Source of the DNA: Armatimonadia bacterium
Lineage (GTDB): Bacteria; Armatimonadota; Zipacnadia; Zipacnadales; UBA11051
DNA length: 32,123 bases
Direction of reading: 5' to 3'
Assembly (NCBI GenBank): GCA_039683575.1
Contig: JBDKRC010000040.1
Span: forward strand, 1 to 32,123
Of this stretch, positions 1 through 6,253 are shown piece after piece. The notes beneath the pieces were generated by a model. It was not told the DNA's origin and did no database searches. It saw only the letters and a list, made by a program, of their open reading frames with translations. The translations under genes and the position numbers were made by a program. Numbering within the stretch: the first letter of the stretch is position 1; each line of letters starts with the position of its first letter.

Positions 1-113
1 GGCGCGAAACGGGCTGTAGAGGGCTTCTGGAGCCAAAATCCGGCAAAAAAGCAGATTCCGAAAGTCAAAGCTGAACTTCAACGCACGAGAAGGGCCGGTT
101 GTTCAGCGGCTAC
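1..113 (-). mobile_element. Putative end (att-like junction) of an element inserted in the prepilin gene; continues beyond the window edge
   Basis: Similarity to prepilins ends abruptly mid-codon. The following sequence looks non-coding and has an inverted repeat GCTGAAC (70-76) / GTTCAGC (101-107). No recombinase is visible, so this is inference only. Confidence 0.4.
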
Positions 114-166
114 ATGATCGCGATGACGACCAACAACTCGATCAGCGTGAAACCTCGTTTGGCCAT
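110..166 (-). pseudogene. Truncated prepilin-type N-terminal (DUF1559-like) gene start, [18 protein letters not shown]
   Basis: GGAGGT RBS at 175-180 and ATG at 166. It encodes the [13 protein letters not shown] cleavage/methylation motif also seen in the two intact paralogs at 26-27 kb, then ATG TAG instead of [12 protein letters not shown]. Confidence 0.85.
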
Positions 167-245
167 GGTACATGACCTCCCTGAATGGTACGAGCCCTCG
201 CTCACCGACAGGGCGCCCTCTCCAGGGGTAGTGCCCTGTTCTACT

Positions 246-262
246 TTAACATTCTCTTAACA
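246..262 (-). promoter_or_regulatory. TGTTAA-N5-TGTTAA direct repeat, possible OmpR/PhoB-family regulator box
   Basis: Plus-strand TTAACA at 246-251 and 257-262 (11-bp period), upstream of the truncated prepilin gene. Confidence 0.35.
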
Positions 263-290
263 GGACGATCTTCCTTCAAGGCAGGTGCAA

Positions 291-2684
291 CTATTTTGTC
301 ACCTGTCTGAAGTCCTCATCAAGAGCCAGCTTCCAGCTTTTGCCCCCGTCGGTGGATACAACCAGGGCGCGGTTGTGGTAGCGATCCGGAAAATCGTCCT
401 GGTACGGATGGTCGGTCCAGTAGCTGTATGACAGGTACAGGCGGCCCTGGCGGTCTATGGTGAGCTTGTGGTAGTAGATCGAATAGCCGGGCACGGGAGG
501 AATGACGACCGGGCGCGCGGGGCTCCAGGGGCCGTCCTTGGGCTTGCTTTGCACAGACAGGGCTGCGTATAGCTGGTCGGGGTGGTGCTCATCAGCGTTG
601 CGGCGCCACTGGCGGAAGGCGATGTGAAGGGTGTCGTTGGCGTCGCAGACGAGGGAGCAGTAGGTCTGGCCGCCGTCGCCGTCGGCATCGCTCTTGTCGG
701 TCTTCCAGCCCGCACTCAGGACTGGTTCGGGCTTGGTCCAGCCGCTGTAGGCGTCGTTGGGTTTGAGCGACCGGGTGTACTGGAAGGGCTTGCCATGCGC
801 CCCGAGAATGACATGGATGTACCCCTGACTGTCCTGGGCGATGGCGGGAACGTTGTGCACGTCATTGACCGGCGGGGCATAGCCGAGCAGAACCTTTTCG
901 CCGACTTTGTCGGTAGTGTGATCGTAGGTGGCAATATAAGTCGGGGCGCCTGGGTCTTTTGGATCAGTGACTTCACCCCAGACGATGTGGGTCTTGCCGT
1001 TGAGGGTGGCCGTGGAGGCGGGGCCGCCGGAGTGCTGGCAGGAGCCGAAGCAGTTTTCGGCCACCTTGACCGGCTCGCCCATCACGAGCTTCCCGGCCTC
1101 CTTCTTGGGCAGGTAGAGGTAAAGGTCGTGATAGCCCGCAAAAGTGGCTTCATGGGGCTTTACGAAGCGATACTCGAGGATTGGCGGCGGGGCCTTGAGG
1201 GCGTTGTGGCCGACGAACTGCTCGATATCGAAGCTGCTGGAGCCCCCCGGCCCGACGGGCACAACCTGCCATGGCTGGCCGCGATCGGGCGTGTAGAGCA
1301 GGACGGCCTGGCGCGTTTTGTCGAGGCTGAGCTGCAGCATGGTGTAGGCCCCGCCGTCGCCATCGAAGGCAAACTTGGCCCCCAGGAAGCCCCCGGCGCC
1401 GTAGCTGGTGCGGTAGTCTGGGTAGGCGGCCTTGATGGCGTCTATGAACGGACGTAGTACCCACTGGCCCTTTTCCAGCAGTTGTACGCCCGTCGAGCCG
1501 TATACGCTCTCGGTGCGCTCGCGCATCCAGGGGTGGTTCCGGAGGTCGAAATATACCTCATTGGGGATGTAATCGGGCGCATACCCATACTGCATGCTCT
1601 CATGCTGGTATGGTTTCAGGACAATCGGCTTGTCCGAGGGGGCAATCAGGCTCGGCGAAACTTTGACCAAAAGGGCGGCACTGGCCTGTACGGTGGGGTC
1701 GCCGACGGCGGTCACTGAGACAGTCCCTCGCAGAACGGAATCTCTTCTTACATGTGGTAGAATTTCCCCTCCAATGTCAACATTGGTCAACTCGTTTTGT
1801 GCAACTAAGGCCGTTTTTTGCGACCCTAGAGTGAGCTTCAGACCATCTTCAGAGCGGGTTTCGATCTTGAAACTCTCGGCGACGCCGGTGCGGTTGCGAA
1901 GTTGTACCGTAAAGATGCATTCCTTGCCCGGCAGGACGGTCTGCATCTGGGAGTAGGGCAGCAGCATCCACTTGGACTTGTCGGCGGCAAACCAGGCGGT
2001 GCTGTCGGCGGTCCACATCGCGGGTTTGTCCAGCGTGAAGCTAACGTCCATGTGCGGGATGTCGAAGTACCAGAGGCCGCCACGGGGCCCCTCAGGGACC
2101 TTGTAGACGATTTTGTCGCCCGAGGGGGCCAGGTCGAAGGTGGTCACAACCTGCTGTTTGTCATCCAGCAGGGGCACCTTGGCAGCACCGGGCGGATGGA
2201 CGGCGCGGGCAGTGATCGTGAAAGCGGCCGCTGGCGGCATGAAGTACACGCGGCCGGGGATGGCGGGATCGTTGAGGAAGATCTCTCCACCCACCAGAGC
2301 CCCCGGAGCGGTGGTCTGCAGCCCATAGACCATATCGCCGCTGCCGGTCACGCGGAGCAAATATGTACCAGGAATGGCGTCTTGGATGGTTGTCTCAGCG
2401 GACTGGAGTTCAGTGGCAGCGCCCTTGCCGGTGCTGCCGTCGTCGGCGATCTCCAGCTTGGCGCGGAGCAGACGGACGGGGTCATAGACCTCGGCAGTGA
2501 GGGTATCGAGGTCGGGATAGATGTTGAGGTCGCGTTTATAGACCTTGATGGTCAGGGGGCCGCCGTCGGAGCGCAGGAGGATGGTGCGCTGGCCGCGGAT
2601 GACGGGCGGAATGGTCGCCGCGTGGGCGGAGGCGGCGATGAGCCCGAGGAGGGCGATGGTTGCGAGGCGGGTTGGGTTGGTCAT
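291..2684 (-). CDS. Secreted BNR-4 repeat (beta-propeller) protein, possible polysaccharide lyase or hydrolase
   Basis: 797-aa ORF with signal peptide (ASAHA). Motifs include DVHNVPAIAQDSQGYIHV..GAH, YYHKL and the Asp-box STDGGKSW. N-terminal beta-sandwich modules. Confidence 0.7.
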   Translation of the reverse strand: MTNPTRLATIALLGLIAASAHAATIPPVIRGQRTILLRSDGGPLTIKVYKRDLNIYPDLDTLTAEVYDPVRLLRAKLEIADDGSTGKGAATELQSAETTIQDAIPGTYLLRVTGSGDMVYGLQTTAPGALVGGEIFLNDPAIPGRVYFMPPAAAFTITARAVHPPGAAKVPLLDDKQQVVTTFDLAPSGDKIVYKVPEGPRGGLWYFDIPHMDVSFTLDKPAMWTADSTAWFAADKSKWMLLPYSQMQTVLPGKECIFTVQLRNRTGVAESFKIETRSEDGLKLTLGSQKTALVAQNELTNVDIGGEILPHVRRDSVLRGTVSVTAVGDPTVQASAALLVKVSPSLIAPSDKPIVLKPYQHESMQYGYAPDYIPNEVYFDLRNHPWMRERTESVYGSTGVQLLEKGQWVLRPFIDAIKAAYPDYRTSYGAGGFLGAKFAFDGDGGAYTMLQLSLDKTRQAVLLYTPDRGQPWQVVPVGPGGSSSFDIEQFVGHNALKAPPPILEYRFVKPHEATFAGYHDLYLYLPKKEAGKLVMGEPVKVAENCFGSCQHSGGPASTATLNGKTHIVWGEVTDPKDPGAPTYIATYDHTTDKVGEKVLLGYAPPVNDVHNVPAIAQDSQGYIHVILGAHGKPFQYTRSLKPNDAYSGWTKPEPVLSAGWKTDKSDADGDGGQTYCSLVCDANDTLHIAFRQWRRNADEHHPDQLYAALSVQSKPKDGPWSPARPVVIPPVPGYSIYYHKLTIDRQGRLYLSYSYWTDHPYQDDFPDRYHNRALVVSTDGGKSWKLALDEDFRQVTK

Positions 2685-2714
2685 GGTTGAGTTACCTAGG
2701 CGTGGTCGGCGTAT

Positions 2715-2815
2715 GCTGTAGGGCGGGGGCTCGTACCCCGCCGCTCGGGTGGTCGTAGATAACGGCAGGCGGGGTACGAGCCCCCTGCGACGCAGACGTC
2801 GCTCCGCCCTACAGC
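2715..2815. repeat. GTAG-type REP/REPIN-like long palindrome
   Basis: Terminal inverted repeat GCTGTAGGGCGG (2715-2726) / CCGCCCTACAGC (2804-2815), inner arms GGGGCTCGTACCCCGCC / GGCGGGGTACGAGCCCC; intergenic. Confidence 0.7.
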
Positions 2816-2820
2816 CGGAG

Positions 2821-2844
2821 GCGGGCAGGGATGCCCGCGGTCCC
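2821..2844. repeat. Second REP-like short hairpin (GCGGGCAGGGATGCCCGCGGTCCC)
   Basis: GCGGGCA / TGCCCGC stem adjacent to the first palindrome. Confidence 0.45.
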
Positions 2845-2863
2845 GGCGAGCGGCCAGAGACGG

Positions 2864-5800
2864 CTACTGGCCTGTGATGCGCAGGGCTGTCGCCTCGGCT
2901 GGATTCAACTCTATTGGCAGGCGGAAGGTTGCCTTTTGGGTTGTGGTTTCGGCTATGCCATCGGGGCCGAGACGCTCGACCTTCAGTTGCTTGTTCTTCA
3001 GGCCGTAGTCAGCGGCGTTGAAGTCGAGGGTGAGGATGCGGGTTGCCTTGGGCACGTTCACAATCGGCATCATCAGGCTGCCGTCGGCGAGACGCCAGGT
3101 GGTGGCCCAGACCACTGGGGTGTGGAGGGTGGTGGCGTTATGGCTCCATAGCTTCCAGCCGCTCTCCATCATGGGAATGGGCTCAACGAACCGCGGCGGG
3201 GCGGCCATGCGGCCGTGGACGAAGTACTCGTTGACCTGCTGACGCAGGTGAGTGGCGTCGCGGAGCCACTTGAGGCCTTCCGGCTGGCCCGTGATACTCG
3301 GGTTGGCCCACCACATCTGGCTGCCGAAGGCGAAGAGCTTGCCCTGGCGCAGGGCCATGAGCGAGGCGTCCTTGTAGTCCGCGCCATCCATGTAGGTGCC
3401 GAACATGAGGATCTTGCCGCCATAGACGGCCGGGAAGAGCGGTACCTCGTAGTTGCTGTTCGAGTTGCACATCAAGTAGGCATCGAAGTACTTGGCATAG
3501 GGCTCGGCGTTGCTCTCGGTGGTGAGCATCTTCTGCGGGCTGACAGTGGCGATCTTCTTCTGGAGCCCGTCGAGAAGCTTCCAGTAGCCCTCCACCCACC
3601 AGTGGCCGCCGCCGAGGGGGTGGCCGTGGGACTTGTCATAGCACAGGACCGGGTGGGCGGCGCCGATCTGGTCAATGTAGACGCCGTTGACGCCCTCTTC
3701 GCCGACCAGCTTCATCACGAGGTCGGTGAGGGTCTGACGCCAGTATTCCTGCGAGATGCACATCGGCGCGAGTTTCTGCTTGGAGCCGTATTCCTCGGTG
3801 TAGGGCTCCCCATTGAGCTGCTTGGTGGCGTACTTGTAGGCCTCGGCCTTGAAGCTCTCCGTGTCGGTGTCCCAGAGGCGGCCGTTGATGTAGGGCATTA
3901 CGTTGATGCCGGCGTCCTGAAGCTCCTTGACGCCGTCGCGGAAGCCCTCTTTGGTCGGGAAGTAGTGGGGGTAGTTGTCATCAAACGGGATCTGGTGCCA
4001 GCTGTACCAGTGAATGGCGGTGGGAACGCCGAGGGCTTGCTGCAGGGCCTTAGTCTGCGGGACGCAGTCCTTGGGGAAGCCGCCGGTGAGCGCCCACGCC
4101 TGGGTCGCCTTCACCCACTCGGGGTAGTCGGAGCGGGAGTACTGGCCGGGCTCCGGCCACCAGGGTGCGTTCTTCTCCAGCCAGGAGCGGTACTTGGCGC
4201 AGGGGGGGAAGTAGCCGCCAGCCGTGACGCCGATGACGACGCTGCCGGCGGTCTGATAGTCATTGCCGGGGATGGAGGCGTTCTCGACGGGGACTTCGAT
4301 GGAGAGAGGCGTGCGAGAGCCGGAGCCGGGGTTCTTGACGACAAGGAACTTGTCCGCGGCGGTGGGATCGTGCTGGGCGACGTAGACGCCGCTCTCGTCG
4401 TCGCAGATGCCAAACCATTGCATGGCGCAGCCGCCGTTGGGATAGGGGCCGCTGTAGCTGGTGGGGATGGTGGTTGGATAGGCACGGCCGAAGCCGTCGG
4501 GCAAAAGCAGGCGGTCATCAGCCGAATCGCCGCCGAGCGCGCCGATTGACAGGGCGGGCAAGGTGACGCGGTCGAGACTCCATTGGTCAGACTTGTTGGC
4601 AACGCTGATCTTCCACAAGGAATCGGGGCCATCAAGGCTGAGTTCGAGGTCCACTTCCAGGCCCTTGACGTCTTTCTCGTCGAGGCCGGTCCAGCGGAGC
4701 AGGGCGCGGCGGGTCTGTCCTGCCTGGTCGGTGATGTCCTGGGAAGACCTGAGCCAGCGGCTGTTGCTGGTTACGGTGGCGGTCTTTCCGGCAGCGTCGA
4801 GGACGGTGAAGCGGAAGAGTTCGCAGGGCTCAGCAAGCAGTTCGCGGCCGCGCTTGAGGTCATAGAGGCTCACAAGCGACCGCGTGTTGCCCTCGCGGGC
4901 GAAGGCGAGACCAATCTGATCGTTGTGCAGAAGCTCATAGCGACGGTCGCCAAGCGTCAGGAAAGGAAGTGGGGCTTCCCCCCGGGCGGCCAGTGCGAAG
5001 GCCGCATCGGCGGCCTTCTGGGCGTCGCTGAGGCTGAGCTTGCGGTTGTTGTAGGCGCTCTCGATCAGGCTGGCCAGCCAGGGCAGGCGGGCGGCGAGGA
5101 CAGGATCCTTGAGCTTCGGGGCAGGGGCGCGGAGCTTGTCGAACGCGGCGATAAGGGCGGGAGTATAGGCGGTGCCAGTCAAAGGCCTGGGACCGTGCTG
5201 AAAGGCCTGCTGGATGGTCTGCAGGGGACTAACGTCGGCGCCGATCCAGAGATCTGCGGAGTAGGATGCTTCGTTGGTGTTCCAGGCCTCCCAGGCGCCG
5301 TGGAGATAGCGGCCATAGTCGGAGAGGCCGTCGTAGACGCGGGCGGGGCCGGAGAGGGCGAGGGCGTTCTTGCCGTCCACGAGAGCGGCAAAGGAGCTAC
5401 CACTGGGCGCTTTCTTGGTGTCGGCGAAGTCGACAACCTCGAGCGGCGGGGCGGCGGCGTAGGCCGGGAATGAATTGTCCTTGAAGTGGAATTCGAGGAA
5501 GTGCAGCTCATTCCACGAGAATGGCTCCTTCTGGTTCATCTCGGCAGATACGCGAACCAGGGGCGAGCCGGCAAAGTAAGTCCAGGTGTAGAGAGCGTGG
5601 GCGCCCGAGGGGGCGGGCTTGTCGCCAGCCATGTAGCGAGCTTCGAGGCGGACCTCAGCGTAGAGCGGGCCGGACGCGACGAGGCGGAGGCCCGGTTGCT
5701 TATCATCCCGGAGGTTGAAACCGCCGACGCCAGGTTCCTTGCTGTGCAGGCGGTCGTTCATGTTCAGGGTGTTGAAGACCTTGCCGGTGGCGTTGAAGGC

Positions 5801-6253
5801 GATGGAGGAGGGCAGCCCGGCATTCTTCGCGGGGTCGTGAATGATGGTGTAGTTGGCATTCTTGACGGTGATGACGCCGTCGGTGGCGGAGGCCGACAGC
5901 GTATCGCCGGGCGCGGGACCGGAGGGGAGTATACCGAGCTTGAGAGTGACAGCGCGCGGGCCGGAGGGCTGGGCGAGCAGGAGCAGGCAGGCGCGCGCCT
6001 CGGTGTCGCTGATCTGATTGAGTTGCCCGAGAGTGTGGGTGTTGGTGGCCGGGTCGAAGGCAGTGACGAGTTGGGTCTGGGGGAGGGAGGAGACCTTGAA
6101 GGCGGCCTTGAGGTCAGCGATGGAGAGGTCAACAAGGACCGGGACAGTACCGCCTGTGAGGCCGGGCGGGATGGTGGTACGGACGATGAGCGACTGGGCG
6201 ATGGCGGGGAGTGAGAAGACAGTGAGGGCTATCAGCAGGGCAAGTTTGCGCAT
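2864..6253 (-). CDS. Secreted DUF6259-like putative glycoside hydrolase (TIM-barrel)
   Basis: 1129-aa ORF with GGAGG RBS and signal peptide. Motifs HWYSWHQIPFDDNYPHYFP, YINGRLWD, GVYIDQI and TESNAEPY. Confidence 0.7.
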   Translation of the reverse strand: MRKLALLIALTVFSLPAIAQSLIVRTTIPPGLTGGTVPVLVDLSIADLKAAFKVSSLPQTQLVTAFDPATNTHTLGQLNQISDTEARACLLLLAQPSGPRAVTLKLGILPSGPAPGDTLSASATDGVITVKNANYTIIHDPAKNAGLPSSIAFNATGKVFNTLNMNDRLHSKEPGVGGFNLRDDKQPGLRLVASGPLYAEVRLEARYMAGDKPAPSGAHALYTWTYFAGSPLVRVSAEMNQKEPFSWNELHFLEFHFKDNSFPAYAAAPPLEVVDFADTKKAPSGSSFAALVDGKNALALSGPARVYDGLSDYGRYLHGAWEAWNTNEASYSADLWIGADVSPLQTIQQAFQHGPRPLTGTAYTPALIAAFDKLRAPAPKLKDPVLAARLPWLASLIESAYNNRKLSLSDAQKAADAAFALAARGEAPLPFLTLGDRRYELLHNDQIGLAFAREGNTRSLVSLYDLKRGRELLAEPCELFRFTVLDAAGKTATVTSNSRWLRSSQDITDQAGQTRRALLRWTGLDEKDVKGLEVDLELSLDGPDSLWKISVANKSDQWSLDRVTLPALSIGALGGDSADDRLLLPDGFGRAYPTTIPTSYSGPYPNGGCAMQWFGICDDESGVYVAQHDPTAADKFLVVKNPGSGSRTPLSIEVPVENASIPGNDYQTAGSVVIGVTAGGYFPPCAKYRSWLEKNAPWWPEPGQYSRSDYPEWVKATQAWALTGGFPKDCVPQTKALQQALGVPTAIHWYSWHQIPFDDNYPHYFPTKEGFRDGVKELQDAGINVMPYINGRLWDTDTESFKAEAYKYATKQLNGEPYTEEYGSKQKLAPMCISQEYWRQTLTDLVMKLVGEEGVNGVYIDQIGAAHPVLCYDKSHGHPLGGGHWWVEGYWKLLDGLQKKIATVSPQKMLTTESNAEPYAKYFDAYLMCNSNSNYEVPLFPAVYGGKILMFGTYMDGADYKDASLMALRQGKLFAFGSQMWWANPSITGQPEGLKWLRDATHLRQQVNEYFVHGRMAAPPRFVEPIPMMESGWKLWSHNATTLHTPVVWATTWRLADGSLMMPIVNVPKATRILTLDFNAADYGLKNKQLKVERLGPDGIAETTTQKATFRLPIELNPAEATALRITGQ

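Follow-up and report, generated by a model that had tools for sequence, protein, structure and literature searches.

Insertion sequences (ISs) such as IS1397 and ISKpn1 of the IS3 family, and the REP-targeting elements of the IS110 family, are specialised on a short multi-copy palindrome that serves as a low-cost site, and the known multi-copy 'safe-site' targets of this kind are non-coding repeats. Members of the IS110 family carry a DEDD-type transposase, have no terminal inverted repeats and usually make no target duplication. Genes are interrupted at a defined site by the sigK skin and nifD elements, which are single-copy, depend on a site-specific recombinase and are excised precisely on cue. 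The IS1182 family spans sizes of about 1.3–1.95 kb, with target duplications of variable length, and bacterial MITEs are exemplified by the Correia elements. IS1272/TnSha1, an IS1182-family element of staphylococci, inserts in both orientations into hairpins, mostly terminators (PMC4923244). The portions of that source drawn on here describe no primary-sequence specificity, no target duplication and the deletion of part of the hairpin (PMC4923244), and a review cited there is given for the statement that some IS1182 members target palindromes. For IS1272, an 'IR-replacing' mode has been proposed in the part of a further source consulted (PMC5678879). Here we describe a prepilin gene of the DUF1559/HX9DG type that is cut inside its leader, and conclude with high confidence that the DNA at the cut (window positions 1–113) is the right end of an IS1182-family IS inserted at the ATCAT of that leader. 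A search of the literature, supplements aside, turned up no description of an IS that targets the DNA of prepilin leaders.

The window, that is, the whole stretch of 32,123 nt analysed, is contig C40 of a metagenome-assembled Armatimonadia genome (G000; 352 contigs, 6.23 Mb, 96% complete, 2% contamination). Its position 1 is the contig end, so the approximately 110 nt that follow the break are all that the assembly has of the foreign DNA here. Direct reading of the minus strand gives an 18-codon prepilin start, from the ATG at 166–164 to a TAG at 112–110 (truncated gene, 110–166), preceded at 8 nt from the ATG by a putative Shine–Dalgarno sequence, GGAGGT (175–180, minus strand). The gene strand is that of an ordinary prepilin leader down to position 114, matching the intact paralogs up to GCGATCAT (121–114); foreign DNA begins at 113 with GTAGCCGCTGAAC, and from 113 down to 1 the gene strand runs GTAGCCGCTGAACAACC. 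No prepilin-like continuation was found in any frame of 113–1. As only the 18-codon leader is kept, the prepilin reading of the window's own gene is limited to the N-terminal motif, and family assignment was made on an intact paralog of the same genome (contig C347, 217 aa). This protein scored 36.5 against TIGR02532 (cut-off 16.3), 34.7 against PF07963 (21.2), 36.1 against PF07596 (DUF1559; 23.3) and 24.2 against TIGR04294 (H-X9-DG C-terminus; 19), and is a DUF1559/H-X9-DG prepilin-type protein. Upstream of the cut gene, window 291–6253 carries two long ORFs on the minus strand (797 and 1,129 aa). The 797-aa gene has orthologues at 70–77% nucleotide identity in three congeners (G001–G003), and no prepilin gene was found after them, so the position of the window's prepilin gene is not conserved.

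The first 300 nt of the window were compared by BLAST with all contigs of this genome, and together with a subsequent motif scan this recovered the same junction at 19 contig ends, all 19 in prepilin leaders; recurrence of the breakpoint at so many contig ends is far beyond chance. Ten of the junctions adjoin 5′ leaders and nine adjoin headless 3′ halves, and both orientations occur. Behind a common 12-nt start, GTAGCCGCTGAA, stand two different sequences, end A and end B. End A, the window's sequence, adjoins 5′ leaders on contigs C40, C180, C277, C278, C298 and C335 and reverse-complement prepilin 3′ halves on C91, C300 and C301, and is 100% identical over 113–123 nt to eight other contig ends of this genome. 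End B adjoins 5′ leaders on C14, C237, C286 and C337 and 3′ halves on C150, C169, C228, C243, C339 and C341. One element whose two ends differ, present in both orientations, would produce the six A-left and six B-right junctions as well as the four B-left and three A-right, and the whole fits about ten insertions collapsed by the assembler. The deepest reach into the element at any contig end of this genome is 159 nt, and this assembly holds no copy of end A or end B away from contig ends. As DNA, end A matched nothing but this genome when compared with 60 relatives.

The cut leaders were also reached from the side of the gene family. A six-frame scan found 171 leader motifs in the genome, 160 of them with at least 80 codons downstream. 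Of the other 11, one is lost at a contig end and ten break off 13 codons past the F; all ten cut leaders are the junctions described above. The first-pass annotation had read the window's gene as cut at a sharp breakpoint rather than by a nonsense mutation, and the 19 identical switches, with the insertion end identified below, bear this out. Two further signs that it had proposed to look for, headless pilin 3′ halves and a recurrence of truncated leader mini-ORFs, are both present, at nine other contig ends and as ten cut leaders followed by end A or end B, respectively. The window's own 3′ half should be among the six contigs on which end B adjoins a 3′ half (C150, C169, C228, C243, C339 and C341). 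Same-genus genomes did not pair the window's leader with a 3′ half, as no prepilin gene follows the orthologues of the 797-aa gene, and two further contigs were tried in the same way. In the region of G002 orthologous to C278, no leader appears until about 1.2 kb further along, and the locus is cut; C277 found no match. An exact-pattern scan of a collection of genome contigs for the junction plus 16 nt of terminus gave five matches, all in unrelated coding DNA with no leader, which were discarded.

A complete copy was found on a 2,435-nt metagenome contig, L010, by a scan with 28 nt of end B. After a leader, it carries an element of 1,819 bp at 592–2410, bounded on the left by end A and on the right by end B. 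End A of contig C301, which is the longest in this genome and contains the window's 113 nt, is identical to L010 592–714 at 123 of 123 positions, and end B of contig C286 agrees with L010 at 156 of 159. The terminal inverted repeats are perfect over 12 of 12 positions and match at 15 of 16 over a longer stretch, and the G+C content of the element (62.9%) is close to that of the genome (63.5%). The sole long ORF runs from B towards A, starts with TTG and encodes 542 aa, its stop lying 140 nt from the A terminus. The product matches the IS1182 family transposase model NF033551 of NCBIfam at 322.4 bits (cut-off 270) over model positions 8–488 of 488, and contains PF05598 (DUF772, 73.9 bits), PF13751 (DDE_Tnp_1_6, 67.5 bits) and PF01609 (DDE_Tnp_1, 42.6 bits), all above their cut-offs. 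On the L010 copy, therefore, family model and domain make-up both place the element in IS1182, and its inverted repeats, its size of 1,819 bp (1,813 bp in the relative L016) and its short target duplication of 5 bp agree with that family.

Identity to the other ends and to L010 defines window 1–113 (plus strand) as the terminal 113 nt of the IS at end A, the right end relative to the transposase gene. The 12-bp terminal inverted repeat common to both ends occupies 102–113, reading GTAGCCGCTGAA inward, and positions 114–118 (minus strand) are one of the two copies of the 5-bp target site duplication, ATCAT in the direction of the gene, as defined by the flanks of complete elements and the empty site. 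The window thus holds the non-coding right end, and the transposase gene would lie on the plus strand to the left of position 1. The IS body is absent from this genome's assembly, which accounts for the lack of a transposase match in the genome, and the link between window and transposase rests on the identity of the ends to L010. A 7-bp inverted repeat that the first-pass annotation had singled out inside the foreign segment is present (GCTGAAC at 70–76, GTTCAGC at 101–107), its outer arm being the terminal repeat core and its inner arm a subterminal copy. As a functional hairpin it was rejected: the 113-nt end folds no better than its shuffles (z +1.13; 176 of 200 shuffles equal or better), and the inner arm is not conserved in related ends.

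Positions 2–4 of the IS terminus, which form the TAG of the window's truncated gene, are an in-frame stop in most lineages: TAG here, TAA in G024 and G005, and TGA in G016, G003, G045, G057, G035 and G029, with TGC in G225 (termini compared: window 110–113, L016, L017, L018, L020 and L021). Because the stop lies in the terminal repeat, a cut leader ends at once in either orientation of the element. The stop could be due to chance, 3 of 8 TRN codons being stops, or to selection against read-through.

The target duplication was established from occupied and empty sites. The left flank of L010 is 96% identical over 591 nt to C347, where the gene is intact; the two are identical through ATCGCAATCAT and part exactly after ATCAT, continuing as CGCCATCCTGG in the empty C347 and as GTAGCCGCTG in the occupied L010. 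In this genome, left flanks end in ATCAT at ten of ten junctions and right flanks start with ATCAT at eight of nine, C301 having ATCAA, which gives a duplication of 5 bp and an undisturbed target of the form GCN-ATCAT-NGC. In the first 130 nt of C301, the 3′ half starts with ATCAACGCA (I-N-A) rather than ATCATCGC, as a variant or as a mutated copy of the duplication. Direct repeats of ATCAT or ATAAT surround the complete elements L016, L017, L019, L037 and L054. The flanks of the two others among seven complete elements (L034 and L049) differ at the central base, reading ATGAT next to the leader and ATCAT at the far end, so that together they form a perfect inverted repeat; templated correction within the quasi-palindrome is a possible cause. 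At L042, one further leader junction, the leader-side copy is likewise ATGAT and the other side ATCAT. The right flank of L010 (2411–2435) is a second leader in reverse and not a continuation of the left flank; its two facing leaders come either from a chimeric assembly path across a repeat present in many copies or from a rearrangement such as an inversion between opposite copies. The near-identical copies and the pair of occupied and empty sites, taken as sequences, suggest that the element was recently active.

We then placed the element among its relatives. Transposase homologues at E ≤ 1e-30 were present in 5 of 401 genomes sampled from the phylum, at identities of 73% in G024 (two loci), 42% in G016, 42% in G003 (same genus), 38% in G005 and 36% in G225 (another family). 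All six homologue loci adjoin a leader or a 3′ half, and three are complete, with both flanks on one contig. The terminus is CTAATCGCTGAA in L016 (1,813 bp, flanks ATCAT and ATCAT), GTGACTGCTGAAAAA in L017 (flanks ATAAT and ATAAT) and CTGCCCGCTGA in L019 (flanks ATCAT and ATCAT). Subtraction of the 1,813-bp IS and one ATCAT from L016 restored an ORF of 219 aa. Across eight termini of four diverged elements, T2, G7-C8-T9-G10-A11 and A14 are invariant. A database search gave 151 transposase homologues at E ≤ 1e-20, two of them named by their source as IS1182 family transposase (Armatimonadetes MAGs); most lie on contigs of 1.7–2.5 kb, a length to be expected when a repeat is assembled separately from its flanks.

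The junction signature ATNGCNATSATSTRNNNGCTGA, which covers either side of an insertion, had 94 matches in 16 of the 401 home-phylum genomes, and its reversed-pattern control had none in any genome. Real junctions account for 87 matches in nine genomes (G000, 18; G057, 20; G035, 15; G003, 11; G024, 10; G045, 8; G029, 2; G225, 2; G005, 1), and the 24 distinct junctions examined among them all lie in leaders (12) or 3′ halves (12). Thus the proposals that a mobile element recognises the DNA coding for ...VVIAII..., and that the DUF1559/HX9DG paralogs form a multi-copy landing pad, hold at 19 of 19 junctions here and at 24 of 24 examined in relatives. Except for G225, every genome with real junctions belongs to the order of this genome. 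The seven single signature matches in other home-phylum genomes fell in unrelated coding DNA and were set aside. Neither junction signature nor transposase was found in G002, a 96%-complete congener, and 401 genomes sampled from the phylum of a Planctomycetota MAG gave three single signature matches, none in a leader.

Miniature elements were found in G003, G045 and G029, where two junctions stand 106–140 bp apart with no ORF between them (L037 on G003:C99, L054 on G003:C140, L049 on G045:C64 and L034 on G029:C653). Their termini, GTGACYGCTGAAA or CTGACTGCTGAAAAA, are the same as those of the full-length relatives and their position in the leader is also the same; owing to their short length, they were assembled whole inside contigs.

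The target is the centre of a near-palindrome, ATCGCNAT-C-ATCGCNAT, that encodes IAIIAI; in its general form, ATYGCNAT-C-ATNGCNAT, it codes for these residues within the hydrophobic core that directly follows the site of prepilin cleavage. In a GC-rich genome IAIIAI takes the codons ATC GCN ATC ATC GCN ATC, and this is the origin of the palindrome. Over 17 bp it is near-perfect, ATCGCGAT-C-ATCGCGAT, and its dyad is the midpoint of the 5-bp cut. Target words were counted on both strands of this genome. ATCAT occurs 12,014 times, 144 in leaders and 11,870 outside; the 11-mer GCNATCATNGC occurs 271 times, 127 in leaders and 144 outside; and the 17-mer ATYGCNATCATNGCNAT occurs 121 times, 120 in leaders and once outside. 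If the 11-mer alone sufficed, ten of ten leader insertions would arise by chance with a probability of about (127/271)^10, or approximately 5e-4, so recognition probably extends to about 17 bp. The lack of insertions at the 144 non-leader 11-mers could in part reflect selection rather than recognition.

These findings allow us to propose how the window came to begin as it does. We suggest that an element of 1,819 bp, with one gene for a 542-aa DDE transposase between 12-bp terminal inverted repeats, inserts in either orientation by a 5-bp staggered cut at ATCAT. The gene is cut after 17 codons of its own and closed by an in-frame stop from the IS terminus, and the 3′ half loses promoter and leader. 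About ten copies occupy as many different paralogs of this genome; the assembler could not resolve the repeat, so that every copy terminates a contig, which is why the window starts here. The palindrome may be read by the transposase itself, whether through its sequence or through an extruded structure, and the paralogs, as a large and presumably dispensable family, would offer the element a low-cost landing site.

Added to a clade specialised on the leader palindrome, a host population that uses the insertions as a reversible pilin switch is improbable. An insertion would silence a paralog cleanly through the stop, excision at the 5-bp duplication would restore the gene, and recombination between copies would re-pair promoters and leaders with other pilin bodies; if so, the expressed set of about 170 paralogs would vary between cells. 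Nothing shows the programmed excision of the skin or nifD kind to which the first-pass annotation had pointed, and the sole hint of one leader being joined to different pilin bodies, as it had also supposed, is the pair of facing leaders in L010, which may be an assembly path through the repeat.

The leader-only distribution might instead have come from one ancestral insertion, made by a transposase without target specificity and later carried to other paralogs when their conserved leader DNA recombined or underwent gene conversion. The near identity of the copies would suit this, and the conserved flanks, about 45 nt long to one side and 60 nt to the other, would be enough for recombination. 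However, both orientations occur in one genome (6 versus 4), and wobble bases differ up to the junction (GTCATCGCGATCAT, GTGATTGCGATCAT, GTTATCGCCATCAT and GTAATTGCCATCAT), so co-converted tracts are absent. Elements only 36–42% identical and unrelated miniature elements also stand at the same position in other genera. On these sequence comparisons, spread from a single insertion is very unlikely.

The agent favoured by the first-pass annotation, a serine or tyrosine recombinase or an IS110-type enzyme carried by an element that integrates into the leader motif and on excision restores or exchanges pilin genes, is very unlikely. A sharp junction that recurs in a conserved coding motif would suit such an element, as would the two leaders facing each other across L010. 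Yet the only long ORF of the complete 1,819-bp element is an IS1182-family DDE transposase rather than a recombinase of the skin or nifD type, no IS110 model is among its matches, and terminal inverted repeats and a 5-bp target duplication are present. Nor were rejoined forms or joints seen in the Logan contigs of four runs, which, being contigs, are unable to show absence.

Two explanations remain, and neither can be given appreciable weight. Insertion at random, followed by selection that left only copies in dispensable prepilin paralogs, would draw on the size of the family (171 genes) and on the probable dispensability of its individual members. Selection would, however, tolerate any site along these genes, which are about 650 bp long, yet all 19 junctions here, like all 24 examined in relatives, fall at the same 5 bp; leader-only junctions are beyond what purifying selection could produce by itself. 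An assembly artefact in the form of a chimeric contig end would suit a feature 113 nt from the end of a contig in a metagenome-assembled genome of 352 contigs, but the same junction stands in independent assemblies (L010, G003, G005, G016, G024, G029, G035, G045, G057 and G225) and in Logan contigs of other runs, and complete elements lie inside long contigs such as G024:C34.

The Logan contigs of the four runs were compared with window 1–1500. In run X2, a 169-nt contig equals window 1–115 and runs 54 nt past position 1; in run X24, a 538-nt contig has end A with two differences and then a different flank. A 662-nt contig of run X1 equals window 114–717 with no differences; ahead of 114 it has 58 other letters, and the window's own site is therefore joined there to a sequence that is not end A. 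Taken together, the 26 loose ends at 114 give a consensus that is the reverse complement of an intact leader and that mixes many paralogs.

Together, these results describe an IS1182-family lineage with miniature derivatives and a strict target in a conserved coding motif. Every junction examined falls at the same 5 bp of a 17-bp near-palindrome, though the transposases are down to 36% identical; to our knowledge, few DDE insertion sequences have a target as strict. The target is here a protein-coding motif, conserved across a gene family that has expanded greatly, and the lineage offers a tractable system for how IS1182-type transposases pick palindromic targets. It also shows how a mobile element can live at little cost on the erosion of redundant paralogs, with 10 of 171 genes knocked out. 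For those who work with such genomes, assemblies of these bacteria break at pilin-like genes, and annotations will list 18-codon 'mini-ORFs' and headless pilins that are halves of one gene.

Set against the known systems, the 106–140-bp derivatives resemble MITEs in having the terminal repeats of a parent, no ORF and the same 5-bp duplication, and differ from other bacterial MITEs in keeping the parent's strict leader target. Gene interruption at a defined site is common to the present element and to skin and nifD, but the former is a multi-copy IS with a DDE transposase, inverted repeats and a target duplication. Like IS1397, ISKpn1 and the REP-targeting IS110 elements, it aims at a multi-copy palindrome; those elements use non-coding REP units and belong to other transposase families, whereas the repeat used here is a conserved coding motif shared by a family of paralogs, one of which is inactivated with every insertion. 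With IS1272/TnSha1, as described in the portions of the source drawn on here, the element shares its transposase family, inverted-repeat or hairpin targets and insertion in both orientations; unlike IS1272, it uses one defined near-palindrome inside coding DNA and duplicates 5 bp of it.
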